This document shows, piece after piece, positions 1-12,110 of a stretch of 12,110 bases of DNA (its first letter is position 1; every line of letters starts with the position of its first letter). Where the stretch lies: positions 1 through 12,110 of IMG/VR virus record IMGVR_UViG_2778261454_000009. One strand, written 5' to 3'. The notes under the pieces were generated by a model. It did not search any database. It had not been told where the DNA came from and worked only from the letters and a program-made list of their open reading frames with translations. The translations under genes were made by a program, and so were the position numbers. Origin of the DNA: a virus (taxonomy: Duplodnaviria > Heunggongvirae > Uroviricota > Caudoviricetes).

Positions 1-1194
1 ATGATCACCGACACAAAGCTCAGGAAGGCGCTCGGCAAGAAAAGAGATGATATCGAGATTATTTCTGATTCGCACGGGCTCAACGCCAGAATCAGCCAGG
101 CCGGAAAAATATCATTTTTCTATCGGTATCGCTGGGCCGGTAAAGCGGTAAAACTCAATGTTGGTGATTATCCTGCAATGAGTATCACCCAGGCAAGAGA
201 GCGTCGCCAACAATTCAGAAACTGGTTAACTGAGGGACTGGATCCGCGAGAGCAGGTGAAGCTGGATAAGCAGACCCGACAGGAAGCGATGTCCGTTGCC
301 GAAGCGTTCAATTACTGGATTGAAAGGCACTGTATCGCTAACGGGCTAGTTAAAGTCGATTACTATCGCCAGGTGTTTGAGAAACATATCGCCGAACCGA
401 TGAAGAATGTCAAAGTCGATAACACAGCGAAAATGCACTGGATCAACGTCTTCGATTCTATAGAAAGCAGGGTGATGGCTCATTACATGCTTTCGCTGTG
501 CAAACGGGCGTTTAGGTTCTGCGTTAACAGAAGTGTGATCGCCTCAAACCCACTCGAGGGATTACTGCCATCTGATGTCGGGCAAAAGCCTAAAAAGAGA
601 ACTCGCAGGATGGACGATGACGATCTGCGCAAAATCTATCAGTGGTTGAAAAGCCATATGTCGATAGAGTCCGTTTTCCTGGTGAAATTTATTATGCTTA
701 CCGGATGCCGTACGGCTGAGATTCGACTTAGTGAGAGATCATGGTTTCGATTGGATGATAATGAGTGGGTCGTGCCTGCGGGCAGTTATAAAACTCGGGT
801 ACATATTAGAAGGGGACTCTCAGACGCCGCCGTTAACCTGGTCAGAAATCACCTCAAGAAAATAAACACCAATCACCTGGTGACTTCACAACGTAAAATT
901 GATGGCGGGATCAAAGATTCGCCCGTTCATTCACCTGTGGCATCCAATTACGCCCGTTCTATTTGGAATGGAACAGGTATGGCAGAGTGGTCGCTTCATG
1001 ATATGAGGCGGACGATAGCCACAAATCTCTCTGAGTTAGGTTGCCCGCCGCACGTAATTGAAAAGCTGCTCGGGCATCAGATGGTGGGGGTTATGGCGCA
1101 TTACAACCTTCATGACTATATCGATGATCAGAAACACTGGCTCCGCGTTTGGCAGAGCCATCTTGAAGAGATCATCGGAGAGCCCTTCAGTTAA
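1..1194 (+). CDS. int: Tyrosine site-specific integrase with N-terminal arm-type DNA-binding domain
   Basis: 397-aa ORF from ATG at 1. N-terminal arm-binding-like motif (FFYRYRW...[13 protein letters not shown]). C-terminal catalytic boxes [14 protein letters not shown] and LGHQ...MAHYNLHDY give the R-H-R-Y signature. The window starts at the start codon, so promoter and att site are not visible and the true start could lie upstream. Confidence 0.9.
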
Positions 1195-1388
1195 TTTATC
1201 TTCTTTTTATCCTCCCACTCTTTGATTGACTCAGAGCGCCAGCGGTTAGGGTTGCCGGGCCAGTCAGGGGGTGGGAACGGGCATACGAAGCCCCGAGGCA
1301 TTGTGTCTGCACTTTGCCATGACCAAAGGGTTTTGCGTGAAATTTTGTAGCGACTGGTCAGGTCTGACGTTACCAAAATATCATCCAT
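1191..1388 (-). CDS. AlpA-family HTH protein, putative excisionase/regulator (Rac ydaQ position)
   Basis: HTH-like core [20 protein letters not shown] and C-terminal [14 protein letters not shown] resemble the phage AlpA/Xis family (from memory). The ORF track extends to 1433 but that codon is TTG with a poor RBS. The in-frame ATG at 1388 is preceded by GGAGAG at about 4 nt. Its stop overlaps the int stop tail-to-tail. Confidence 0.6.
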
Positions 1389-1429
1389 AGCTCTCTCCAG
1401 TTGCCCGTTCGGGCCATTCAAAATCTTTT

Positions 1430-1672
1430 TCAACCAACCTGCCCGGGCAGGGAGCGGAGACGGCGCATGCCGGTCATCGCTGTGGCCACGTAGCTCGCCT
1501 TTCGGTTCACCACCTCCACCCAGACTTTCACGCCTTCAACCTTCACCGTATAAGTCTCTTTCATCTTGCTTCGCCCATAGTCGCCATATGTTTGCAAGTG
1601 AGCTTCCAGCGCGATGTCGCATGCTTGGCGAGCTAAAGGTGATTGCTTACTTCCTCGATTGATCAGTCGCAT
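1430..1672 (-). CDS. Hypothetical small protein (ydaC/ralR position of Rac-like prophages)
   Basis: 80-aa ORF with ATG at 1672 preceded by AAGGAGA, lying in the leftward operon between the recT-like and xis-like genes. No recognisable motif. Confidence 0.5.
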   Translation of the reverse strand: MRLINRGSKQSPLARQACDIALEAHLQTYGDYGRSKMKETYTVKVEGVKVWVEVVNRKASYVATAMTGMRRLRSLPGQVG

Positions 1673-1710
1673 ATAATCTCCTTGAGGGAGGGTTACCCCT
1701 CCCGGTCTCG

Positions 1711-2829
1711 TCAGGCCACGTATTCCGGTTTCATATCCGCCAGGGTGATGCTGAATTGATCGTGCAGTTCATCGCCTAAGTGACGCTTTGAAGATGCAAG
1801 CATGCGCTCGGCTTCAGCGAACCGTTCGGATGCATGCGGCTCGTCGGGCTGGGGCAGGGATTTAATAGCCTCCTCAACCTTGTTGCGTGCATCCACTAGG
1901 TAATAACGCTTTACGGCTTTGTTTTTCAGCTCGGTGAATAGTGCGGATCCCAGCGTAGCTTTCGCCGTTTCAATGTCGGCACGCAGCGATTTGGCGCTAT
2001 CCACGTCCTGAGCAGATTCGATGCGTTCGCGGAAATCATCGGCAAGAGAGTCGACATTTACCGACGATTCCTGTGCGCTTTGCGTGGTTGTGACGGTGTC
2101 ACCTGAGATATCAGCCAGGCTAACGCGTTGCGGCGTTGGGTTGATCTCTTTTTCTGTGCGCTGTTCAATCTCATCAGGGGTGTACACACCAAGAACAACT
2201 GCAGGGCAATACAGGCGCGCCCAGTATTTGAGTGCCAGATAAGCGATCTGCTGTTTCGGGTTTGATACCCAAAGTGGAGAATTACGTGTGATTACGCTGG
2301 AGAGGAAAACAGGCTCTCCCCAGGTGATATCACTTTCACCGCGAATAACGGCACCTACCCGTACCGACAGTCCTTGTTCATCAGCACTTTCCCAACCGCG
2401 TACCATTTCTTTCTTGTCGTACGTCCCGCCACCTTTCGCAGGCTTTTTAACGGTTATCTCGCGGCTGCTGGCACATTTCGACCAGTCGCCCTCGTACTCA
2501 TAGTGAAAGCGGCCAACGATGGCGTTTGAGCTGGAGATCACCGCATTAACCAGTTGCGCTTCGTATCCCAGGACACCGTTAACCAGGTGCGTCTTTTGCG
2601 CCACGGCGTAAGGGTTCATACCCCACTGCATCGCCTGCATGATGATGGCCATGCAGTCTGCCGGATTGCCGCGGAGGTGCTCAGGCACCGTTACGGCTGC
2701 CTGTGCCATCAACCCGGCGACAGACTGAAGCTGGGTTAAAGCCTGCACGTTGAAAATGGCATTGCTGGCTGAGATCGTGTTTGGAGTCTGCTGTTCAGCG
2801 GTTACGATATTCGTGTTTTCCATCATCAT
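1711..2829 (-). CDS. recT: RecT/Red-beta superfamily single-strand annealing protein
   Basis: 372-aa ORF immediately downstream of recE in the same orientation (6-bp gap). Region ...DCMAIIMQAMQWGMNPYAVAQ...LGYEAQLVNAVI resembles the conserved Bet/RecT core (compare lambda Bet ALLIVANQYGLNPWTKEIYAF). AAGGGG RBS before a triple ATG. Family assigned from motif plus recE-recT synteny. Confidence 0.7.
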   Translation of the reverse strand: MMMENTNIVTAEQQTPNTISASNAIFNVQALTQLQSVAGLMAQAAVTVPEHLRGNPADCMAIIMQAMQWGMNPYAVAQKTHLVNGVLGYEAQLVNAVISSSNAIVGRFHYEYEGDWSKCASSREITVKKPAKGGGTYDKKEMVRGWESADEQGLSVRVGAVIRGESDITWGEPVFLSSVITRNSPLWVSNPKQQIAYLALKYWARLYCPAVVLGVYTPDEIEQRTEKEINPTPQRVSLADISGDTVTTTQSAQESSVNVDSLADDFRERIESAQDVDSAKSLRADIETAKATLGSALFTELKNKAVKRYYLVDARNKVEEAIKSLPQPDEPHASERFAEAERMLASSKRHLGDELHDQFSITLADMKPEYVA

Positions 2830-2834
2830 TCCCC

Positions 2835-5800
2835 TTATGCCTGAGTACGCAGCGCTTCAAGGCGGCGCAGGTCGAAGTCGTTCAGTTCGTCGGTGTAGTC
2901 AGCAGTGATTGGCGCTGGCCATTCACCTGTGTCGAATCCGGTTGCGATATTGCGCATCGCTTTGCGGTACTCGAGCATACCCAGCTCCAGTAGTTCAGCG
3001 GATGCCTCGATGATGGCGATCCAGTGGTAGTTCTCGTCTTTGTTGACGAAAATCCAGAAGAACTGGTCCAATGCTGCGGTCTCGCAATACATGGCGGCGC
3101 TCAGGTGGTAATCACGGTCGATGATTTCCCGGTGCAGTTTGGCGCGCAAACCTTCCTGTTTAATGTTCCACATGCTGATGGTTTTCAGGTCGGCACCGAT
3201 GCGAACGCCGTCCAGGTCGATCTCCAGATCAGGACGAACGCGGACTTCCAGACCGGTTTCGTCGTCAAAGCCAAAGTAGCTCACCTCAACAGCGCGGCTC
3301 GGATGCTGAAGCAGCATCCCGGCGGTTGGGTGTGCCAGTAATGCCGACTGAATAGCCAGCGCGGTGCTCAGTTGCTGACGGGTGACCAGCACTTTCCCTT
3401 GCGGATTCTCACGCCAGGCATCCAGCAGTTCGTCGGCAACGACGGCGTCCGGATTAACAGACTTCACGGTCTGGATCAGATCCGCTTTGGTACCGGACAC
3501 TTTCAGTGGTTGGGGCTTCTGCGCCTCCTGTGCAACCAAGTCAGGATTGATGATTGCCAGTTGCTCGAGTAACGCATCACGGCTACCGCTGGTTTTCACC
3601 TGTGCTGGCAGAGTGGCGTTGTATTCCTTGATGCAGGCTTTCATCGCCGCTGCGGTCTGCTTCTGGTCCGCTTCGATACGCTGATACTCTTCAGGAAGCG
3701 ACATATAGCTCTGACCAGTTTCCTCGACTGAACCACCCAGCGGCACCTGTGCTGGCAGAGTGGCGTTGTATTCTTCGAGCAAGGCTTTGATCTCATCTGC
3801 ACTCAGCAGCGCTTGCAGACCTGCGTTGTAATCATCGATAAACGCGCGGATCGTTGCCGTCGTGGTGAATGCGCCTTCCGGAATTACCGGTTCAACGCTG
3901 AATTCGGCATCCAGCAGTTCGGGCTGCAGCGCCAGCGCATGCACCAGGTTTCCCATGTCGAGCACCGGTGAGCGTTCTTTGACGATTGTCTTGGCGACGT
4001 GGCGCGCATTAAAGTACATCAGGCTAACTCGGGCATCTTTCACCTGCGTGGAGCTGATACCGTTGGCGGCGTGGTAAACCTCGTTCGGCAAACCTTCATA
4101 ACGACCTGGCTCGAAGTAAGCGGGATACACGGCTACCGGTTCGTCAGTTTGTACTTCTGGTTCGTTTTGTGCCGCAACTGGCTCAATTTGGTTTACAGAA
4201 TCGCTATTTTGGGCGACAGAATCCGCATTCTGGTTTACATCGGCTTGCTGGCTGGTATGTGACTCTTCACCAGTTTCCAGACTGCTTTCGCTTGACTGCA
4301 CTTCATCACCAGCATGTTTTTCATCACTGACAGTTTCTTCCATCTGCACATGGCTGGTGGTGTCCTCATTAACTGGTGAACGGTCATCTGTTTGTGTTTG
4401 TTGATCGCCCATCAGGCCATCAATGGAGAATACGCCGTTGCCCATGTTGGCGATTTGTGGCTGTTTAGCATCTGTTTTCTGCTCTGCAGCGACCTGCTCA
4501 TTAACCTCATTTTCCCAGCTGACGTCCGGCGCATGACCAGCATCAGCCAGCGTTTCTTCTGAGGGGTTTGAGTGGTCATTTTCGGTTAGATTGGCATTGA
4601 TATATGCCCGCAACCGCCCAGGAAAGTTAACCAATTCGGATGATGTGCCGCGGATGAGTGCAAAGATGGCTGCGCGTGAATAGTCCAGGATGCCAGCGGT
4701 TTTGCGCAGCGCCTCAGACCATTCGCTGAACGGACTTTCTTTCTTGCTGACAATCTCTTTAGCGCGACGGTAGACCCCACCAGGTATGTCGTAGATATTG
4801 AAATCCATTGGCAAGGTGGCCAGCGCAATTTCAACATCCAAAGTGTCCAGTGTGTGGACATAGTCGGTATTACGATCGGTCTTATTTCCACCGCCAGCAT
4901 TGGTTTTGACGTCAGTACGTTGAATCTGCGCAACGCGGTTACCTTTCTGCCATTCCTTGGCCAGCAGGCCACGGTCGATGTAATCAGTGTTGAACCACAC
5001 AGTCAGGAACTGGATAACTGTTGCCAGCTCCGGTTTTTTACCGTCGACAGGGAAGACTTTCTTAACAGCATTCACGACTTTATGAATATCGTGCTCAATG
5101 GCTTTTTTGAATGCTTCCACATTCTCAGCAGCCAGCAGCAGGTTCTGGATGTACGTGTCATCAGTGTCCATCTCAAGGCGGACAATCTCGTTTTTCTGCC
5201 CAGCGTCGATGTGATAGAGATATTCACCATCACCGATGAACTGAGCCAGTACGCGCTGACGGAATGGCAGGGTGGCTACGACGATCAGGTTCGGCTGATC
5301 TGGCTGCTGAGATTGTTCTTCGGGACCGACTTCATCACCAACGCTGGTGGTTTCAGTTTTGAGCAGAGGAAACTTTCCACTGCGCCAGTCTTCAACCAGT
5401 TGATTGCGATCACCTGCTTCTGCGTTCACCCAGTCAGACATGAAAGCAGCGATCACTTCAGGTTCATGCTCTTCACCCTGTTCGAAGATGTCTTTAATCG
5501 CCTGAATCATTTTCCACTCAGCATTAAGACTGAGTTCGCCAACTTCAGGAACATCATTTTTAACCTGCAGCAAGTTCTGGAGATAGGTATTGCTTTCGTC
5601 CAGTGACATTTCGCTGGCAGCCAACTGCTGCTCTTTAGTGACGTGGGTTTGGTATTTATCGTTCATCAGATGGACGGCAAAGCGGACCGCTGGAGTACGG
5701 TTTTCAACCGGGACAATTTCGGACGCAGTCGCATCTTCAACGATTACGGTCGGAGTAGGTGTGTAGGGGGCGTCAACGGAACCAGTAGACACACCAGCGG

Positions 5801-6074
5801 CTTTTGGCAGCCAGGTGCGCCCATCGTCCTGAAGCTCGTAGCGATCACACCAGGTAAAATCAACTTCACCTTCTTTCGGCAGGCCGTCGACAACTGGGAA
5901 ATCAGTGCGAATCGGTTTGGCGTAGTCCTTACCCCGACCTGTTTCGATACCTGCATCTTCCAGCGCAACATCCAGCATCAGATTGGCGCGAGCCTCGGTT
6001 TTAGCAGTGAACCAGACCACTGCATCTTGCTTTCCGGATTTCTGAGTGGCTTTAACCACATTAAAGAATTCCAT
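2835..6074 (-). CDS. recE: Exodeoxyribonuclease VIII (RecE-like), enlarged form with acidic low-complexity linker
   Basis: 1079-aa ORF. N-terminal TDFPVVDGLPKEGEVDFTWCDRYEL and central KVFPVDGK...WFNTDYIDRGLLAKEWQKGNRVAQIQRT...NAGGGNKTDR...LDYSRA blocks match my recollection of E. coli Rac RecE ([51 protein letters not shown]...NAGGGNLTDR). GAGGAT RBS before ATG at 6074. Confidence 0.85.
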   Translation of the reverse strand: MEFFNVVKATQKSGKQDAVVWFTAKTEARANLMLDVALEDAGIETGRGKDYAKPIRTDFPVVDGLPKEGEVDFTWCDRYELQDDGRTWLPKAAGVSTGSVDAPYTPTPTVIVEDATASEIVPVENRTPAVRFAVHLMNDKYQTHVTKEQQLAASEMSLDESNTYLQNLLQVKNDVPEVGELSLNAEWKMIQAIKDIFEQGEEHEPEVIAAFMSDWVNAEAGDRNQLVEDWRSGKFPLLKTETTSVGDEVGPEEQSQQPDQPNLIVVATLPFRQRVLAQFIGDGEYLYHIDAGQKNEIVRLEMDTDDTYIQNLLLAAENVEAFKKAIEHDIHKVVNAVKKVFPVDGKKPELATVIQFLTVWFNTDYIDRGLLAKEWQKGNRVAQIQRTDVKTNAGGGNKTDRNTDYVHTLDTLDVEIALATLPMDFNIYDIPGGVYRRAKEIVSKKESPFSEWSEALRKTAGILDYSRAAIFALIRGTSSELVNFPGRLRAYINANLTENDHSNPSEETLADAGHAPDVSWENEVNEQVAAEQKTDAKQPQIANMGNGVFSIDGLMGDQQTQTDDRSPVNEDTTSHVQMEETVSDEKHAGDEVQSSESSLETGEESHTSQQADVNQNADSVAQNSDSVNQIEPVAAQNEPEVQTDEPVAVYPAYFEPGRYEGLPNEVYHAANGISSTQVKDARVSLMYFNARHVAKTIVKERSPVLDMGNLVHALALQPELLDAEFSVEPVIPEGAFTTTATIRAFIDDYNAGLQALLSADEIKALLEEYNATLPAQVPLGGSVEETGQSYMSLPEEYQRIEADQKQTAAAMKACIKEYNATLPAQVKTSGSRDALLEQLAIINPDLVAQEAQKPQPLKVSGTKADLIQTVKSVNPDAVVADELLDAWRENPQGKVLVTRQQLSTALAIQSALLAHPTAGMLLQHPSRAVEVSYFGFDDETGLEVRVRPDLEIDLDGVRIGADLKTISMWNIKQEGLRAKLHREIIDRDYHLSAAMYCETAALDQFFWIFVNKDENYHWIAIIEASAELLELGMLEYRKAMRNIATGFDTGEWPAPITADYTDELNDFDLRRLEALRTQA

Positions 6075-6213
6075 GTGAGATCCTCATTTTTGGGTGTTAG
6101 AATCCCCGGACCATTGATAGCGCCCATTGGGTTAACTTTGGTTTTAATGTTGTTTCCGGTGTAACTTTGGTCGGTACCACCGGACGTAGATCCCGCCTTG
6201 CGCGGGTTTTACG

Positions 6214-6375
6214 TTAGCCTTCGTGAGCCATCTGGTCGTGCGAAGCGCAACGTTTGGAGCAATACTCTTTTTCTTTGCGCGCCAGCTGTGAGCCGTTGCG
6301 ATAGAGAAGGGTGCTCTTGATTACTTCCTCCGTTTTAACCGGCTTGCCGCAATATCCGCATTTCTTGTCTAACAT
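6214..6375 (-). CDS. Small zinc-ribbon protein (YdaE-like), 53 aa, absent from the ORF track
   Basis: Hand translation of the minus strand gives MLDKKCGYCGKPVKTEEVIKSTLLYRNGSQLARKEKEYCSKRCASHDQMAHEG, with a CxxC ... CxxxC cysteine pattern. GGAGGA lies 4 nt upstream of the ATG. It sits between the kil-position gene and recE, where Rac has ydaE. Confidence 0.6.
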   Translation of the reverse strand: MLDKKCGYCGKPVKTEEVIKSTLLYRNGSQLARKEKEYCSKRCASHDQMAHEG

Positions 6376-6386
6376 GACATCCTCCG

Positions 6387-6593
6387 CTAGTGGCTGAGTC
6401 CATGCCCCAGACCGTTCAGATAAACTTCAACCAGCAAATCCTTGGTGTAAGTCATTTCTACGCCGCGATGCAGATACAAACGTCCGCGAGCGTTAGCTGA
6501 TGCCGTCCAGGTTGAGTCTTTGTGTTTGACGAGCATCCCCGGCTGAACTGCGCCGCGGTTTACTGTCTGTGTACCGTAGTGCTGATGAACCAT
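6387..6593 (-). CDS. Small protein, first gene of the leftward early operon (KilR position by synteny)
   Basis: The ORF track's 116-aa version starts at a TTG (6737) with no usable RBS. The in-frame ATG at 6593 (MVHQHYGTQTVNRG...) is preceded by GGAGAA at about 6 nt and gives a 68-aa product. Function is inferred from position only. Confidence 0.55.
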   Translation of the reverse strand: MVHQHYGTQTVNRGAVQPGMLVKHKDSTWTASANARGRLYLHRGVEMTYTKDLLVEVYLNGLGHGLSH

Positions 6594-6845
6594 GATGTTC
6601 TCCAGTTTTTCTGAGTGAACTTCGCTGGTGGTGCCGCGGCGCTGATCTTCACGGTTGAGCGTTTTAACTCTGCAATTCACCACCGCGAAGCTCACTCTGT
6701 GCTTTGCCCTTGTCGCCAGGCTGGCGGAACGTTTCAAACCTACTGCGCGTTAATCTCACCACCTCATTCCGGTCTTCGTATGCCCCGGACGGCTACTTCG
6801 TGGGCTCCATGCCTGGGTGGTTCGTGGTGCGTCTTGGTGATTGCA

Positions 6846-6874
6846 TATTAAGCCTGAGACTTAAATCATGTCAA
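6846..6874 (-). promoter_or_regulatory. PL-like sigma70 promoter for the leftward operon
   Basis: Minus strand reads TTGACA (6874..6869), a 17-nt spacer, then TTAATA (6851..6846). The spacer and -10 contain the operator palindrome also found at the rightward promoter. Confidence 0.5.
6848..6864. promoter_or_regulatory. Putative repressor operator, 17-bp near-palindrome (OL-like)
   Basis: TTAAGCCTGAGACTTAA is the exact reverse complement of 9062-9078 and is itself a 14/17 palindrome. An additional half-site TCAGGCTTAATT lies at 6902-6913. Confidence 0.45.
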
Positions 6875-7015
6875 GCTCCAGGCGAAATGTGATTGTAAGT
6901 TTCAGGCTTAATTGTGATGTTCACCGAATTGCAGGCAAAAAAAATCCCGACGCTAAGGTCGAGATCGGGGACTTCGTGGCTGGGTGTTGGCGGCTGAGAT
7001 GGTGGGTGAGGGTGT

Positions 7016-7045
7016 AAAAAACCCGGCGCTGTGGCCGGGTTTTTT
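7016..7045. terminator. Bidirectional rho-independent terminator
   Basis: AAAAAA-CCCGGC-gctgtg-GCCGGG-TTTTTT: a 6-7 bp GC stem with a 6-nt loop, flanked by an A-run and a T-run. It starts 2 nt after the stop of the 34-aa ORF and separates the AT-rich unit from the PL-like promoter. Confidence 0.65.
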
Positions 7046-7047
7046 CA

Positions 7048-7152
7048 TTACTGCTGGTTAAATCCTTTCGGCGAGTGCTGCTGTTCTTTATTACCAAATT
7101 TTTGATTTACAATGATTTTATAAGCGTTATTGAGAGCTTGCTTTATAGACAT
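7048..7152 (-). CDS. Small ORF (34 aa) co-transcribed downstream of the HslV-like gene
   Basis: Hand translation MSIKQALNNAYKIIVNQKFGNKEQQHSPKGFNQQ. AAGGAG lies 6 nt upstream of the ATG at 7152, 17 nt after the upstream gene's stop. It ends 2 nt before the terminator and is AT-rich like its neighbour. Short ORFs are prone to false calls. Confidence 0.35.
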   Translation of the reverse strand: MSIKQALNNAYKIIVNQKFGNKEQQHSPKGFNQQ

Positions 7153-7169
7153 TAATATCTCCTTATGTG

Positions 7170-8474
7170 TTATTGACGATTAAAGTAGTTAGAGTTTAGC
7201 TCTTTAGGGAAGTAGTGTTTACGATTTACCCAAACAAATCCATCAACTTTTGATATCACAGCGACATCAACAGGCCCACCGACAGTTTCATAATCATGTG
7301 ATACTTTTCTTTTGAATGCAGTGATGTTCACTAATGATTCGGCCATATACGCAAGATCTGCCTTCCCAAGTGATTGCAACATCGATATCATTTTATTTGT
7401 ATGGTTATTAACAATATAGCTTTCAAGTTTAGTATCGTGATCTTGTAAAAGTACGTTTTTGAGTTCCTCAATTTCACTGGAGAAGTGATTGGCTAGTACT
7501 CCATTGTTCATTGCAGGGAAAATATTGCTAGAAACATAATGATTAAGCCGATCAAAAACTTCCTCTGTAAGAGTTCTGTTAAAATTAATGATGTTAGGGT
7601 TGCACCCATCAATGAAAGTTACTACTTCATCTTCTTGAGCAAATGGTATAACAAACCCCATATTGGTTACCTCATTATGGGATTTATTATCAATATTATG
7701 GATCATCAATTTGTTTTTAAAAATGCCGTAGATATGAAGAGTGCAAATGGAAGGGTAATATTCTTCCTCTCCATAACCTGTTATAACAATCCCTGAATAT
7801 GTACGACTAGCATGGACTTTGAAAATTAAATAAGTGGAATATAATATGACTTTTTCCATAAGCTCTTGCTGTATATTTTCACAGTTATCAAGAACAATAA
7901 TTGATGAAATGTATGGCGATATTAAATCTTGTATATATGCTAAAGCATCATTAAACTCTTCTGTATCAAACCCTTCGAAAAAGAGATTATTCCTTAAGAT
8001 TCCTATCTCTAAATCAAAGGCTTGCTTAACTATGTTTTGAAAAATAACATTGTCGAGTTCAACGGCGGGGTTCATTGTTAAATAGTTTACTACATTATTA
8101 TCATTAATGTATCTCATCAAACCTTTGAGGTTATCAACAACAAGGTTTATAACGCAAGCCTCTCTCATTTCATTTGTTATAAGGTCTGAGTTACCATTGA
8201 TGAATTTTACAAAGTCATTAACATATTCTTTAATGGTAGGGAAACTAGTTTTCCCCAATTGTTTTCTATAGGATTTAATTATAAGTTCCCACGGTGCGCC
8301 ACCCAGTGTCGCATTATTATAAATCATGATCCCCACGGGATGGTGTTTAGATAGTTCGAATAGTTTTTCCGCACTATTATTTATTTTTACTAATCTATTA
8401 TGCTCTGTGGTGACTGCAGAGTCAGCAGCAAGGGCGATTCCAGTATTATTTATTACAACAATCTCAGCTGTCAT
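7170..8474 (-). CDS. HslV/20S-proteasome-beta-like N-terminal-nucleophile hydrolase homolog with a large insertion
   Basis: 434-aa product from ATG at 8474 (the track's longer form from 8573 has no RBS). The ORF is about 33% GC. N-terminus MTAEIVVINNTGIALAADSAVT...NNSAEKLFEL parallels HslV [24 protein letters not shown]...KKVRRL and 20S beta [21 protein letters not shown]...KNCSKIHFI, with Thr directly after Met, Asp at 17 and Lys near 33-36. Mid-protein IVITGYGEEEYYPSICTLHIYG and C-terminal DYETVGGPVDVAVISKVDGFVWV resemble the corresponding T1-family strands. The GSG loop is not recognisable. Comparison is from memory, not a search. Confidence 0.6.
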   Translation of the reverse strand: MTAEIVVINNTGIALAADSAVTTEHNRLVKINNSAEKLFELSKHHPVGIMIYNNATLGGAPWELIIKSYRKQLGKTSFPTIKEYVNDFVKFINGNSDLITNEMREACVINLVVDNLKGLMRYINDNNVVNYLTMNPAVELDNVIFQNIVKQAFDLEIGILRNNLFFEGFDTEEFNDALAYIQDLISPYISSIIVLDNCENIQQELMEKVILYSTYLIFKVHASRTYSGIVITGYGEEEYYPSICTLHIYGIFKNKLMIHNIDNKSHNEVTNMGFVIPFAQEDEVVTFIDGCNPNIINFNRTLTEEVFDRLNHYVSSNIFPAMNNGVLANHFSSEIEELKNVLLQDHDTKLESYIVNNHTNKMISMLQSLGKADLAYMAESLVNITAFKRKVSHDYETVGGPVDVAVISKVDGFVWVNRKHYFPKELNSNYFNRQ

Positions 8475-8502
8475 TGCAAAACATCCCGTGTAGTAGTGAT
8501 AA

Positions 8503-8531
8503 ATATTAATTAAATTGATAGTTTTTTTCAA
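8503..8531 (-). promoter_or_regulatory. Candidate sigma70 promoter for the HslV-like unit
   Basis: Minus strand reads TTGAAA (8531..8526), a 17-nt spacer, then TAATAT (8508..8503), about 30 nt upstream of the ATG at 8474. Confidence 0.45.
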
Positions 8532-8615
8532 TCTAACATAAATGGCGGAATCACCCCCCAGTAAAGACATCATTGTCTCATGGGAACTAAAAATTCAGGA
8601 CAAACCTAAAGCGAT

Positions 8616-9002
8616 TCAGTCCCCCTGCGAGCGAATCCGCCCCTTCATGTACTTCTCATACAGCTCATCCAGTTCCTTAAGACGTATCGAAAAGATGCGG
8701 AGCATGTTCTGTTGCTCTTCTTCTGGAAGCTGGCGGTAGAGCTCAAGCAGGCGCTGTTCGTCCGGCTTAAGTCCGTCCTTCTCGCCGACATCCTCACCGA
8801 GTAACCAAGGCACAGACACGCCAGCTGCGTCAGCGACAGCGAGAGCTGATTTCTTGCTGATCACGCCTTTTTTAAACCAGCCGTTCACAGACTGCGGGGT
8901 TACCCCAGCAACCCTGGCCATATCGGATTTGGTCATACCGCGCCCGTTCAGCTCTGAAAGGCGTTCGACAAGTATCGGATTAAGTACGGTTTTCTCTTTC
9001 AT
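8616..9002 (-). CDS. CI-like immunity repressor, XRE-family HTH transcriptional regulator
   Basis: 128-aa ORF with a canonical HTH (MTKSDMARVAGVTPQSVNGWFKKG) and a helical C-terminal region. It is divergent from the Cro-like gene, with shared operators in the intergenic region. No obvious S24 peptidase domain, as in RacR/DicA-type repressors. Confidence 0.8.
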   Translation of the reverse strand: MKEKTVLNPILVERLSELNGRGMTKSDMARVAGVTPQSVNGWFKKGVISKKSALAVADAAGVSVPWLLGEDVGEKDGLKPDEQRLLELYRQLPEEEQQNMLRIFSIRLKELDELYEKYMKGRIRSQGD

Positions 9003-9050
9003 GGTTAGAAGAATAAGCCTTTTGCTTAAACTTGAAAATTCGCCTCAGGC

Positions 9051-9080
9051 TTGACAATAAATTAAGTCTCAGGCTTAATT
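9051..9080 (+). promoter_or_regulatory. PR-like sigma70 promoter for the rightward operon
   Basis: TTGACA (9051-9056), a 17-19 nt spacer, then a TTAATT/TAATTT -10-like element (9075-9081), followed by GGAG and the ATG at 9107. This is a mirror-image copy of the PL-like cassette. Confidence 0.5.
9062..9078. promoter_or_regulatory. Putative repressor operator, 17-bp near-palindrome (OR-like)
   Basis: TTAAGTCTCAGGCTTAA lies between the -35 and -10 of the PR-like promoter and is the exact reverse complement of 6848-6864. A related half-site CTCAGGCTTG at 9044-9053 overlaps the -35. Confidence 0.45.
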
Positions 9081-9106
9081 TGATTGTATTCAAATCGGAG
9101 ACAACG

Positions 9107-9325
9107 ATGAACGGGTTAACGAAAGCCATTAAGTCCGCTGGCACTGCAACAAATCTCGCAACCATGCTGGGCATCAAGCCGATGTCGGTCAGCCGCTGGA
9201 AAAACCGGTACCAGGGCATGGTGCCTGCTGATCGGGTCCTTCAAATCTACGCGGCTACCGGCGTAACTCCACACGAGCTGCGCCCTGATCTCTATCCAAA
9301 CCCAAGTGACGGTTTACCAAAGTAA
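9107..9325 (+). CDS. Cro/YdaS-like small HTH regulator
   Basis: 72-aa product from ATG at 9107 with GGAG 6 nt upstream (the track's longer ORF from 9032 lacks an RBS). HTH ATMLGIKPMSVSRWKNR and the HELRPD motif are typical of the YdaS family. It is divergent from the repressor. Confidence 0.7.
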   Translation: MNGLTKAIKSAGTATNLATMLGIKPMSVSRWKNRYQGMVPADRVLQIYAATGVTPHELRPDLYPNPSDGLPK

Positions 9326-9336
9326 GGAATGTAACT

Positions 9337-9876
9337 ATGCAATCACTTACGTATCAACAGAGTAACGGGTTCATTTCAGCAGCGCTGATAAATCGCGCTC
9401 AACCAAAACCGGGCGTCAGTTGTGGTGCCCTCCGTGATGCTGTTCGCGCCTGGTCAGCAGTAGCCGGGCAGGACGTTGTAACGGCCCTGATCGTTGAAGA
9501 GTGGCACCGGATAGGTGGCGAAGGTATCGACTTTCCGGCAGATCACAGCCGTGCCCGGCAGAAGCTGTTCCGCTTCCTGGATAACCATTTCAACAGCGAA
9601 CGGTACCGCGAGAACGTCCGCCAGCTGACGCCGGCAATCCTCGCTGTCCTGCCGATTGAATACCGCAATCGTCTGCTACCAGAAGACAACGTAATGGCTC
9701 GTCTGGCAAGGCTGGAGAAGGAAACCAGCGAAGCGAAGATTGCTGTCGCAATGGATGCGCCACGTCATCAGAAGCTGAAAGAGTTGAGCGAGGGGATCGT
9801 GGAGATGTATCGCGTTGACCCTGGGTTAACCGGTCCGTTGATGGAAATGGTGCAGATTATGCTGGGGGCTATATGA
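9337..9876 (+). CDS. YdaT-like protein (cII-like regulator / putative toxin YdaT family)
   Basis: 179-aa ORF 11 nt after the Cro-like gene, with AAGGAA RBS. The motif LTPAILAVLPIEYRNRL resembles the conserved PAILAILP segment I recall from Rac YdaT. Gene order matches ydaS-ydaT. Confidence 0.6.
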   Translation: MQSLTYQQSNGFISAALINRAQPKPGVSCGALRDAVRAWSAVAGQDVVTALIVEEWHRIGGEGIDFPADHSRARQKLFRFLDNHFNSERYRENVRQLTPAILAVLPIEYRNRLLPEDNVMARLARLEKETSEAKIAVAMDAPRHQKLKELSEGIVEMYRVDPGLTGPLMEMVQIMLGAI

Positions 9877-9960
9877 CCGGTTCAAAAATGGCGAAAGCCG
9901 CGGTGCTCGAACACCAACGGCTTTCAGGTGCAAAAACAGTGCGTAATTGCGGAGAACAGT

Positions 9961-10869
9961 ATGTCAAACACCGCTGAAATAATCAATTTCCCAAATAAAA
10001 CCGAACAACCGGGAGGTCGTATGGCCGACCTGTCGAACGGGTATACCAAGGTCGCTAACGAGATCCAACAGCTTAAGCCTCGCCTGAGACTGTCAGGCCG
10101 GGAATGGCAATGTTTTGAGGCGGTGATCTGGCTTACCTACGGCTGGAACAAGAAACAGGACCGCGTGACAAATACGGTTATTGCCGAGCTTACGGGCCTG
10201 AGCGATACGCATGTATCGGACGCGCTTAAGTCTCTCGCAGAACGCAAAATCATCTTTTCACAGAAGCAGGGCATGATGAAAATCGTCGGTGTAAACACTG
10301 ACCTTTCAGCATGGATTTTAGACAAACCGGAAACGGGAAGAAAATTCCCGAAAACGGGAAAATCCTTCCCGAAATCAGGAATAACCTTCCCGAAAACGGT
10401 AGACACCCAATACAAGAACAAGAACAGTATTAAAAGATCTTCGTCCGAGAATTCTGACGAATCCTCTGACGCACGTCTGAAGAAATTTTTATCAACTCAT
10501 CCTGAAGCTGCGGTCTACACACCATCCGGTGCGAAGTGGGGCTCTGCTGAAGACCTCGAGACAGCTAAGTGGATTTCCTCCAGGGTGAAGCTGATTAACC
10601 CAACCTGCAAAGCCCCGGACATGACCTCCTGGTCTAACACTGTTCGCCTGATGCGCCAGATAGACAACCGGTCGCACCAGGACATCTGCGCGCTGTATGA
10701 CTGGGCTAGCAAACACCACTTCTGGCAGACCAACATCCTGAGTCCCGAAAGCCTGCGTAAGCAGTGGGACAAGCTGACAATGCAGCGTAACGCCGGAGGT
10801 GAGCAGCGCGCTGTCAAGCCAGATCTGGACTTCAACAACACTGACTGGGCCTATGGGGTGATCCGATGA
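9961..10869 (+). CDS. Replication initiator, lambda O-like
   Basis: Start at ATG 9961 (GGAG 6 nt upstream; the track's start at 9928 is an upstream extension). MSNTAEIINF... resembles lambda O MTNTAKILNF, and ...LTYGWNKKQDRVT... matches O ...KTYGWNKPMDRIT. Iteron repeats are embedded in the linker-coding region. The stop overlaps the next start (ATGA). Confidence 0.8.
   Translation: MSNTAEIINFPNKTEQPGGRMADLSNGYTKVANEIQQLKPRLRLSGREWQCFEAVIWLTYGWNKKQDRVTNTVIAELTGLSDTHVSDALKSLAERKIIFSQKQGMMKIVGVNTDLSAWILDKPETGRKFPKTGKSFPKSGITFPKTVDTQYKNKNSIKRSSSENSDESSDARLKKFLSTHPEAAVYTPSGAKWGSAEDLETAKWISSRVKLINPTCKAPDMTSWSNTVRLMRQIDNRSHQDICALYDWASKHHFWQTNILSPESLRKQWDKLTMQRNAGGEQRAVKPDLDFNNTDWAYGVIR
10325..10403. 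repeat. Origin iterons: four ~21-bp direct repeats, each an internal inverted repeat, inside the O-like gene
   Basis: CCGGAAACGGGAA / TTCCCGAAAACGGGAA / TTCCCGAAATCAGGAA / TTCCCGAAAACGGTAG spaced at 21-22 bp, followed by a more AT-rich stretch (10405-10450). They encode the FPKTG peptide repeats. Architecture resembles lambda ori (TCCCTCAAAACGAGGGA x4). Confidence 0.6.
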
Positions 10870-11444
10870 AATCTCTTGCAGAGCAGATGCGTAACCACGA
10901 CCGCGAGCAGATGAGCCGCATGGCCCATAACCTGCCAGAGCAGTACCAGGAGTGCGCGCCGGTCGAGCAGGTGGCGCAGGTATTCAACAAGCTGTTCAAC
11001 GAGCTGCGCGCCGCGTTCCCGGCCAGCATGGCGAACTTCCGCACCCAGGAAGACCTGAACGAATTCCGCCGTCAGTGGCTGCTGGCGTTTCAGGAGAACG
11101 GGATCCACACCATGGCTCAGGTCGATGCCGGCATGCGCATTGCCCGCCGCCAGGAGCGCCCATTCCTGCCGTCGCCGGGCCAGTTCGTCGCCTGGTGCAA
11201 GCAGAGCGGCGGCGCGCTGGGCGTCAACGTTGACCAGGTGATCGCCGAATACTGGGACTGGCGTAACCGCTCGTTCGAATTCATCTCCAGCGAGCAATTT
11301 CCATGGTCGCAGCCGGTCATGTACCACATTTGCGTAGAATTGCGCCACCGCAGCACCGAGCGCCAGTTAACGCATGGTGAACTGGCACGCGAGGCAGGCG
11401 ATCTGCTGGACATGTGGGAAAGGCGCGTCACCGAGGGTATCTGA
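10866..11444 (+). CDS. Replication protein, lambda P-like helicase loader (short form)
   Basis: MKSLAEQMRNHDREQMSRMAHNLPEQY... closely parallels lambda P MKNIAAQMVNFDREQMRRIANNMPEQY..., and ...RRQERPFLPSPGQFVAWC... is shared. At 192 aa it is about 40 aa shorter at the C-terminus than lambda P (233 aa, from memory). Confidence 0.8.
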   Translation: MKSLAEQMRNHDREQMSRMAHNLPEQYQECAPVEQVAQVFNKLFNELRAAFPASMANFRTQEDLNEFRRQWLLAFQENGIHTMAQVDAGMRIARRQERPFLPSPGQFVAWCKQSGGALGVNVDQVIAEYWDWRNRSFEFISSEQFPWSQPVMYHICVELRHRSTERQLTHGELAREAGDLLDMWERRVTEGI

Positions 11445-11476
11445 TTATCTCCTGTGCCCACATTCCGTTTTGCCGC

Positions 11477-11502
11477 TTCTCCCAAACCAACCTTTTTTAT
11501 AA
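11477..11502. promoter_or_regulatory. Candidate hix/gix-like crossover site for the adjacent serine invertase
   Basis: TTCTCCCAAACC-AA-CCTTTTTTATAA has a 12-2-12 layout with an AA core and about 20/26 identity to hixL (TTCTTGAAAACCAAGGTTTTTGATAA) as I recall it. It lies 60 bp upstream of the invertase ATG. No partner site is visible in the window. Confidence 0.4.
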
Positions 11503-11561
11503 CCATCAAAAATCTGGTGATGCTTCGCCGTTTCTCCTGTTTTCATAACAGGAGAAATCCC

Positions 11562-12110
11562 ATGATTTACGGTTATGCCCGAGTATCAACAAACCACCAG
11601 GACACTGAATTGCAACTAACGGCGCTCAAGTCAGCGGGTTGTGAGAAAATTTTTGAAGAGCATGCCAGCGGGAGGAAATCGAATCGGCCGGTTCTAAAAC
11701 GGCTGATCGCCACTATGCAGCTGGGGGATGAACTGGTGGTCTGGAAGCTGGACAGGATAGGCCGCAACGTTCTGCATGCGCTGTTGATGTTCCAGCAGTT
11801 ACAGGAAAAGGGTATCAACTTCCGCAGTATTACCGATGGCGTGGATCTCAAAACAGCCAGCGGCCGCTATAACTTTCGTAACATCCTTTCCGCAACACAA
11901 TATGAATCTGATCTTAATAGCGAACGTACCTTAGCAGGGCTGGCCGTAGCCAGGGCAAAAGGGCGAGTTGGTGGTCGCAGGCCTAAGTTCACGGATGAGC
12001 AATGGCGGGAAATGGGGGAGCGGATGGCAACCGGTGAATCACGACAAAGCGTATCAAAAACGTATGGAGTAGGGCTCTCAACTCTGTATAAAAAGTTTCC
12101 AGCTAGCTGA
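11562..12110 (+). CDS. Serine DNA invertase, Hin/Gin/Pin/Cin family
   Basis: Start at ATG 11562 (GGAG 7 nt upstream; the track's start at 11454 is an upstream extension). MIYGYARVSTNHQDTELQ... has the catalytic-Ser N-terminus; LVVWKLDRIGRN and INFRSITDG match the resolvase core; the C-terminal HTH ends ...LSTLYKKFPAS (compare Hin ...LSTLYKKHPA). The window ends at its stop codon. Confidence 0.85.
   Translation: MIYGYARVSTNHQDTELQLTALKSAGCEKIFEEHASGRKSNRPVLKRLIATMQLGDELVVWKLDRIGRNVLHALLMFQQLQEKGINFRSITDGVDLKTASGRYNFRNILSATQYESDLNSERTLAGLAVARAKGRVGGRRPKFTDEQWREMGERMATGESRQSVSKTYGVGLSTLYKKFPAS

Follow-up and report, generated by a model that had tools for sequence, protein, structure and literature searches.

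A low-GC two-gene cassette beside the prophage repressor gene

The window analysed here is the whole 12,110-nt stretch (positions 1 to 12,110) of the IMG/VR virus record IMGVR_UViG_2778261454_000009 (Caudoviricetes), and the element under study is a low-GC segment that lies between a PL-like promoter and the prophage repressor gene. Two open reading frames (ORFs) make up this segment, both on the minus strand: a gene for a 434-amino-acid proteasome-beta-like hydrolase of the N-terminal nucleophile (Ntn), Thr1 type with two helical insertions (7170..8474), and a small partner ORF of 34 amino acids (7048..7152; MSIKQALNNAYKIIVNQKFGNKEQQHSPKGFNQQ). A first-pass annotation made from the sequence letters had put the GC content at about one third by hand sampling, against about 50–55% in the flanking phage genes, and had read the segment as a moron co-oriented with the repressor gene. 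Calculation in 300-nt windows confirmed a sharp dip to 0.30–0.36 across 7051–8550, between flanks of 0.51–0.55 on the left (6451–7050) and 0.53–0.54 on the right (8551–9000), so that the composition is far from uniform. The codon positions agree: GC at third codon positions (GC3) is 0.303 in the enzyme ORF (overall GC 0.337) and 0.371 in the small ORF (0.333), by comparison with 0.54–0.81 for int, recT, recE, kil, the repressor gene, ydaS, ydaT and the replication genes. The repressor gene (8616..9002) is directly upstream of the cassette and on the same minus strand.

The limits of the immunity region are marked by a 17-bp palindrome, TTAAGYCTSAGRCTTAA, which has three matches in the window (6848–6864, 6895–6911 and 9062–9078) where 0.06 would be expected. 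Two of these surround the PL-like promoter, TTGACA-18-TAATAT, at 6874..6845, while the third, an exact match, lies between the repressor gene and the cro-like ydaS and is the single copy on that side even at up to three mismatches. Judged from their sequence and arrangement, the three operators would define the OL-like and OR-like sites of the prophage immunity system, with the OL/PL-like control region (6845..6911, minus strand) as its left edge and the OR-like operator (9062..9078) as its right edge; as they bracket this interval, the cassette is placed between the OL/PL-like region and the repressor, inside the immunity region. The 128-amino-acid repressor is DicA/RacR-like, with matches to Pfam HTH_3 (1e-06), the NCBIfam DicA subfamily (1.7e-08, below the cut-off) and the transcriptional regulator family phrog_8. 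In E. coli K-12, the kilR–racR interval of Rac contains sieB, annotated as a 'phage superinfection exclusion protein', together with ydaF and ydaG; and a Klebsiella copy of the cassette is found directly downstream of cI, arranged in the manner of rexAB. The positional analogy with lambda rexAB and Rac sieB that was drawn in the first-pass annotation is borne out by these comparisons.

Related prophages were compared using a 3.1-kb query that reached both flanks of the immunity region, kil on one and ydaS/ydaT on the other. Sibling prophages match on both sides and carry different genes between kil and the repressor, together with a diverged repressor allele: the slot contains genes for 173 and 84 amino acids in SZQ1 and NADC1036, and for 211 and 101 amino acids plus a second helix-turn-helix (HTH) gene in strain 1368KP. 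Homology with 1368KP restarts at window position 7045 (91% identity) and at ~8644 (~70%, within the diverged repressor allele), and that with SZQ1 at 6840 and 8620. The cassette itself was present in 13 of 5,426 complete E. coli genomes, isolated from human, pig, chicken, dog, frog and river, with at least 99.7% identity and both ORFs intact in all 13; it is not part of the prophage backbone. The siblings' cargo was also considered as a set of known defence genes and this was rejected, the products being only uncharacterised coiled-coil proteins with no significant PADLOC match. The foreign GC content, the swapping of cargo among siblings and the rarity in E. coli all support the moron reading, as do the position between OL/PL and the repressor, the co-orientation and the presence or absence among related prophages. 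We conclude, with high confidence for the genomic and structural parts of the statement, that a Rac-like lambdoid prophage acquired these two genes horizontally, as a low-GC cassette within its immunity region.

Prophage 1368KP has some peculiarities of its own. Its alternative cargo gene ends, just before the terminator that it shares with the window, in a run of at least nine CACCTG/TGCACC hexamer repeats (locus 3676–3740), and its immunity region has two tandem HTH repressor-like genes encoding 131 and 137 amino acids (locus 4658–5486). Further, it combines operator and repressor alleles in an unusual way, with 91% identity to the window on the OL side and only ~70% between the repressors.

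A proteasome-like enzyme with a conserved core and variable insertions

The start of the enzyme gene annotated by the Prokaryotic Genome Annotation Pipeline (PGAP), ATG 8573 (467 amino acids, WP_244586339.1), was rejected for ATG 8474 (434 amino acids), because three observations agree on the latter: the phrog_5990 match spans the full length of the protein; most of the 120 homologue N-termini listed start at MTAEI and the remainder have short extensions before it; and DNA homology to the Klebsiella copy begins exactly at 8474. The 467-residue model would bury the catalytic threonine behind 33 non-conserved residues. The enzyme belongs to a large family with more than 6,128 proteins at E ≤ 1e-5 in a 90%-identity collection and 6,085 clusters at 50% identity (3,380 at E ≤ 1e-30), and with lengths of 417–457 amino acids; of the 150 best representatives, 144 have a match that starts at residue 1 or 2, and a propeptide is accordingly exceptional.

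An AlphaFold2 model of the monomer (predicted local distance difference test score, pLDDT, 87.1; predicted template modelling score, pTM, 0.82) contains an alpha-beta-beta-alpha Ntn core that is superimposable on the proteasome beta subunit. Residues M1, T2, D18 and K30 are invariant in all 46 diverse sequences aligned. Removal of methionine before threonine is expected from the specificity of methionine aminopeptidase; by its sequence the protein has no propeptide and loss of the initiator methionine would be expected to expose Thr1. D18, which is Asp17 in mature numbering, is in register with E. coli HslV. A profile freed of the insertions matches residues 166–186 of the Thermoplasma beta subunit (DSASGGMIDVAVITRKDGYV), a C-terminal motif, with E = 0.033, and the sole hhalign alignment to genuine E. 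coli HslV has M1-T2, D18 and T22 in register with E = 0.19. Within the viral structure library BFVD no full-length relative was found.

The catalytic core comprises residues 1–98, 219–292 and 369–434 and is interrupted by helical insertions at ~99–218 and 293–368, which together amount to ~195 amino acids. The two parts diverge to very different extents, with mean pairwise identities of 0.57, 0.45 and 0.77 for the three core segments by comparison with 0.21 and 0.19 for the insertions. Hypervariable insertions on a conserved core fit a diversifying recognition surface. The enzyme is acidic, with a pI of 5.2.

The small partner ORF

The partner ORF begins 15 nt past the stop codon of the enzyme gene (ATG at 7152, 18 nt downstream; the stop codon ends at 7170), is preceded by a strong ribosome-binding site, the Shine-Dalgarno (SD) sequence AAGGAG (7164–7159), and stops 2 nt short of the terminator's A-run. 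Its predicted product is a basic protein of 3.9 kDa with a pI of 10.0. An ORF of 34–35 amino acids with a GGAG SD sequence occurs at the same place in Klebsiella, Serratia, Pantoea and Rahnella, and the enterobacterial partners have the motif M[ST]...AYK.[IL]...KF[GS] in common. The proportions of synonymous (pS) and nonsynonymous (pN) differences were 0.82 and 0.10 between the E. coli and Klebsiella partners (first 20 codons), and 0.82 and 0.19 between those of Serratia and Rahnella (whole ORF); since the substitutions are mostly synonymous, the enterobacterial partner is under purifying selection.

The pairing extends well beyond the Enterobacteria. In 84 loci, which sample nearly every bacterial phylum as well as phages and several lineages of archaea, an ORF of 30–95 amino acids started between -12 and +35 nt from the enzyme stop codon in 80 cases, often with an overlap of 4–11 nt, while the same test applied at random positions succeeded in 31%; the start positions in these 80 loci span -11 to +30 nt. 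Thirty-four of the small partners, from Nitrospirota, Clostridia, Planctomycetota, Chloroflexota and methanogens, form one family detectable with a hidden Markov model. This long form has a basic N-terminus, the motif [FY]xSxxE[FYW]...[YF][FL]P, a linker and a ..G..LA.E.L helix; [YF][FL]P is present in 28 of the 34 members against 2.1 expected, and the proline in 32. A second partner family has 17 members, from Bacteroidota. A connectase-like D-P site in the partner was also considered and downgraded to a minor lead, as it occurs in nine of the 34 long-form partners (3.5 expected) and in none of the enterobacterial ones.

Promoter, terminator and transcription of the cassette

The segment had been described in the first-pass annotation as an autonomous transcription unit with its own promoter and a strong bidirectional terminator, and this description stands in part. 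The promoter-like sequence TTGAAA-17-TAATAT does exist on the minus strand (8531..8503), within the 141 nt that separate the repressor stop codon from the enzyme ATG, but it is a prediction with a 9/12 match to the consensus. Fourteen promoter-like sites of this 9/12 type lie in 6700–9400 by comparison with 7.2 ± 2.4 in shuffled sequences and, as such matches occur at about twice the shuffle frequency in this AT-rich DNA, the match is not discriminating. A conserved cassette promoter was rejected: the upstream DNA is unalignable between genera and the Klebsiella homology begins at the ATG.

The terminator proved to be as strong as had been proposed. The hairpin AAAAAACCCGGC-CACAGC-GCCGGGTTTTTT that closes the cassette (7045..7016, minus strand) has a folding free energy (dG) of -18.9 kcal/mol (z = -4.67), and none of 200 shuffled sequences was as stable; given the A and T runs that flank it on both sides, it plausibly acts in both directions. 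However, 91% identity to sibling prophage 1368KP, whose cargo is different, extends through this hairpin and into the adjoining DNA; the terminator is thus, in E. coli, a feature of the slot and not demonstrably of the cassette. Near-identical CCCGGC/GCCGGG hairpins close the cassette in Klebsiella, Serratia and Pantoea, and the Rahnella cassette has a variant hairpin, CCCAGC/GCTGGG, without a T run.

Autonomy is the less certain part of the description at this locus, where the promoter match is weak and nothing insulates the cassette from the repressor transcript. Between the repressor stop (8616) and the enzyme ATG (8474), no terminator-like structure was found on the minus strand in these 141 nt, so that transcription reading through from the repressor promoter is no less likely than initiation at the weak promoter match; from this arrangement of sequence elements, the repressor gene is the likely source of read-through transcription of the cassette. 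Where other prophages carry the cassette antisense to their late operon, a promoter of its own is implied, and this lends independent transcription indirect support.

Two further elements were noted near the cassette or its relatives. Between the PL-like promoter and the main terminator there is a second, weaker terminator-like hairpin, at 6943–6966 on the minus strand and followed by TTTTTTTT (dG -13.5 kcal/mol, z -1.6), which may have arisen by chance or may act as a backup. The copies in Serratia and Rahnella have in common a conserved block ~200 nt upstream of the enzyme gene, consisting of a hairpin and then ...CTACGT.ACCACTCTTATCA.GTTACAA..., which is missing from the E. coli and Klebsiella copies and may be a slot-specific regulatory element of the Q–holin region.

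The cassette in accessory slots of phages and satellites

The Klebsiella copy (70% identity) lies directly downstream of, and co-oriented with, a LexA-like (Peptidase_S24) cI gene in three lambdoid prophages that differ in their replication and recombination modules. In Serratia ureilytica, Enterobacter, Salmonella (beside HicAB) and enterotoxigenic E. coli (ETEC), the cassette is instead found in the slot between Q and holin, antisense to the late operon; the Enterobacter copies are in two prophages with different lysis cassettes. Another Klebsiella lineage has the cassette beside a holin–lysozyme cassette, Serratia marcescens has it directly after the primase of an integrase–AlpA–Toprim/VapE island, and the Pantoea copy is within a phage-like element. 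Thirteen phage or satellite records in GenBank carry the enzyme family. The gene lies between Q/Dam and holin in a Providencia phage, beside the lysis cassette in a Stenotrophomonas phage, and is also present in a Porphyromonas phage; nine of the records are from Streptococcus and seven of these are satellites, of which the one inspected, Javan421, has the enzyme gene in its accessory end, near RelBE.

Loci of the enzyme family occur more widely in Proteobacteria, Firmicutes, Actinobacteria, Bacteroidetes, the Planctomycetes–Verrucomicrobia–Chlamydiae (PVC) group, Cyanobacteria and Euryarchaeota. Among the four nearest genes in 37 diverse genomes were Type I, IIG and III restriction-modification (R-M) systems, MADS, DrmMI, HEC-06, PDC-S01, dCTPase, Zeta toxin and SocA/Panacea.

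Nine E. coli genomes, ETEC strains included, encode a diverged second member of the enzyme family, of 427 amino acids. In ETEC-2265, the only one inspected (locus 6907–8190), it lies between Q and a DNA methyltransferase, tRNAs and holin, a position that is the slot of the Stx genes in other lambdoid phages.

Comparison with known systems

The nearest described relatives of the enzyme are the Proteasome homologs with Multiple Insertions (PMI) of Fuchs, Alva & Lupas (2021), of which PMI-3 and PMI-4 have insertions after H1/H2 and between H3/H4, where, as those authors argued, they would hinder ring and double-ring assembly (PMC8665760). The PMI proteins share with the enzyme a proteasome-like core with Thr1, Asp and, putatively, Lys, as well as the lack of a propeptide and both insertion sites. 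By comparison with Table 1 of PMC8665760, PMI-4 also has the same wide spread across bacterial phyla, Euryarchaeota and phages, with 501 nr90 sequences then against 6,085 clusters at 50% identity here. The enzyme is most likely PMI-4 rather than PMI-3, an assignment made by abundance and distribution only. The 2021 study was purely computational, and PMI were described without a reported function, partner gene, prophage or satellite slots or mobile-element context (PMC8665760); our searches of the literature returned no functional study of a PMI protein, and nothing for the RefSeq accession or the PHROG number of the enzyme. Immunity-region morons were thus already known and the enzyme family had been catalogued computationally; what is new is that the enzyme gene has a conserved pairing with a small ORF, that temperate phages and satellites systematically carry the cassette in their accessory slots, and that a conserved core contrasts with a hypervariable cap.

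Connectase, an archaeal, monomeric and lid-bearing proteasome homologue, is a strictly sequence-specific protein ligase whose N-terminal nucleophile works exclusively on the D-P bond within a KDPGA motif (PMC7980362). It differs from the present enzyme in having its helical insertion between S3 and S4 and in lacking H1/H2, in being confined to methanogens, and in that its target, MtrA, is not encoded by an adjacent small gene and there is no link to mobile elements. HslV, BPH and Anbu are housekeeping, ring-forming proteins of ~175–240 amino acids, HslV being ATPase-driven, whereas the enzyme has 434 amino acids with ~195 in insertions, no ATPase partner, a mobile location and a small ORF as its pair.

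In position and logic the cassette resembles lambda rexAB and Rac sieB, which are likewise cargo between OL/PL and the repressor; rexAB also consists of two genes co-oriented with the repressor, whereas sieB in K-12 is oriented opposite to racR. There is no relationship of sequence or fold between these genes and the cassette (no PADLOC or Pfam match). RexB and SieB are membrane proteins, unlike the enzyme, which is modelled with a soluble-type proteasome-like fold. Lit of prophage e14 is a zinc metalloprotease that cleaves EF-Tu on T4 infection and would be the closest functional precedent, a prophage-encoded protease acting as an abortive-infection effector; by contrast with the cassette, it is a single gene for a metalloprotease with a known trigger and target, and the cassette encodes a Thr-Ntn type enzyme with a partner gene.

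A possible role in conflict between phages

We propose that the cassette would be transcribed in the lysogen by read-through from the repressor promoter, from its own promoter, or both, with transcription stopping at the 7016–7045 hairpin in the manner of lambda cI-rexA-rexB. The enzyme would be a capped, sequence-specific Thr1 hydrolase or transpeptidase without a degradation chamber, for which connectase offers a precedent, and its variable helical cap would pick the target. The small basic partner would bind to the acidic enzyme and inhibit it, gate it or serve as its co-substrate. On infection, the enzyme would cleave a phage or host protein, such that the module takes part in conflict between the resident prophage and incoming phages by superinfection exclusion or abortive infection. 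We give this chain as a whole, from lysogen expression through a capped specific enzyme and partner gating to anti-phage conflict, a probability of about 45%. The specificity of the enzyme, the role of the partner and the conflict with phages are put forward as hypotheses, built on the fold, the conserved residues, the two-gene pairing across bacteria and archaea and the accessory slots that the cassette occupies in phages and satellites, all of which were established by the analysis.

Several observations weigh against this proposal. The conflict function would follow from genomic context and structure, and the searchable literature contained neither a defence system that relies on a proteasome or Ntn enzyme nor a link of such proteins to defence. 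Pfam and NCBIfam have no family for the enzyme or the partner, and PADLOC-DB v2.0.0 gave no match at E ≤ 0.1. As to the active site, the confidence of the AlphaFold2 model is below 50 at residues 23–31, which include Lys30, no tool aligned the invariant K30 to Lys33, and the residue aligned with Ser169 is valine; sequence similarity to the proteasome and HslV is by itself marginal, although both matches point in the same direction. A single homologous partner family across clades was rejected on an hhalign comparison of the short enterobacterial and long forms (E ~0.2); as this does not show homology, the cross-clade partner claim is positional only. The census of neighbouring genes has no background control and includes ordinary metabolic and housekeeping genes. 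The family is also found in archaea and at loci without visible phage genes, and conflict between phages therefore need not be its only role. Finally, DNA of 33% GC is a typical H-NS target in E. coli and expression in the lysogen may be low.

Given the paired layout, we considered whether the cassette could be a toxin–antitoxin-like addiction module, in which the hydrolase would be a toxin neutralised by the small basic protein and which would stabilise the carrier element with no dedicated anti-phage role. The tight spacing with frequent 4–11 nt overlaps, the small and fast-evolving partner, the opposite charges of enzyme and partner (pI 5.2 versus 10.0) and the mobile-element location, at times beside HicAB, RelBE or Zeta/SocA, would all suit such a module. 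Most type II antitoxins, however, are encoded upstream of the toxin and have a DNA-binding domain, while here the small gene is downstream of the large one and its product matches no family in the Pfam scan, DNA-binding or otherwise. Many toxin–antitoxin modules act as abortive-infection systems, such that this explanation, which we consider rather unlikely, overlaps with a role in phage conflict. A similarly low probability is assigned to the protease being a factor of benefit to the phage itself, which at induction or infection would remove a host defence or regulatory protein as counter-defence, or would process a phage protein. Its presence in isolated Providencia, Stenotrophomonas and Porphyromonas phages, often adjoining lysis genes, is in keeping with this, as is the occurrence in phages of other proteasome homologues (PPH, AAH) with unassigned roles (PMC8665760). 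Yet the cassette is antisense to the late operon in the Q–holin slot and is co-oriented with the repressor both here and in Klebsiella, a layout typical of lysogen-expressed genes; satellites carry it in accessory regions; and the family is common in genomes and archaea without phage context, where it adjoins R-M systems.

That the small ORF is instead a precursor, cleaved or ligated by the Ntn enzyme into an active peptide such as a signal or inhibitor, is in our estimation improbable. Such peptide maturation would explain a short ORF with a conserved motif ([YF][FL]P in 28/34, Pro in 32/34) beside a specific-looking enzyme, and both the fact that connectase targets a D-P bond within a short conserved motif (PMC7980362) and the occurrence of D-P in 9/34 long-form partners against 3.5 expected lend it some weight; but no transporter or maturation genes travel with the pair in the contexts inspected, the partners have no obvious signal peptide by inspection (no predictor was used), and the enterobacterial partner has neither [YF][FL]P nor D-P. 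Least of all do we favour an inert passenger, that is AT-rich foreign DNA that is silenced or decaying and without current function in the prophage. Such an explanation, to which 33% GC in a host of ~51% GC and the rarity in E. coli might lend themselves, is difficult to reconcile with the intactness of both ORFs throughout the 13 E. coli copies, which are ≥99.7% identical, with catalytic residues that are invariant in 46 diverse sequences, and with purifying selection on the small ORF.

Returning to conflict between phages as the preferred explanation, a wider form of it is that the family represents an unrecognised and very widespread anti-phage or inter-phage system, with a proteasome-like Thr1 hydrolase as its effector, a specificity set by the hypervariable cap and a partner that gates the enzyme or is consumed by it, spread among bacteria and archaea by temperate phages and satellites; this we regard as a tentative idea, with the odds somewhat against it. 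If true, threonine-Ntn proteolysis would join the chemistries of immune effectors and a PMI proteasome homologue would have its first biological role. A large orphan family of ~6,000 clusters at 50% identity in any case gains a concrete and cheap hypothesis that is testable in E. coli. The enterobacterial pair occupies classic lysogen-expressed accessory slots, the rexAB/sieB slot included.

Other features of the window

The RecE-like gene (window 2835–6074) encodes 1079 amino acids from its first ATG and 1129 in the PGAP annotation, by comparison with 866 for RecE of K-12 Rac, and the Pfam matches of its product are confined to the N-terminal Exonuc_VIII and C-terminal PDDEXK-like parts. The replication-protein-P-like gene (10866–11444) is a GC outlier in the direction opposite to that of the cassette, with a GC content of 0.62, a GC3 of 0.81 and windows of up to 0.66, which suggests another mosaic joint in the prophage.

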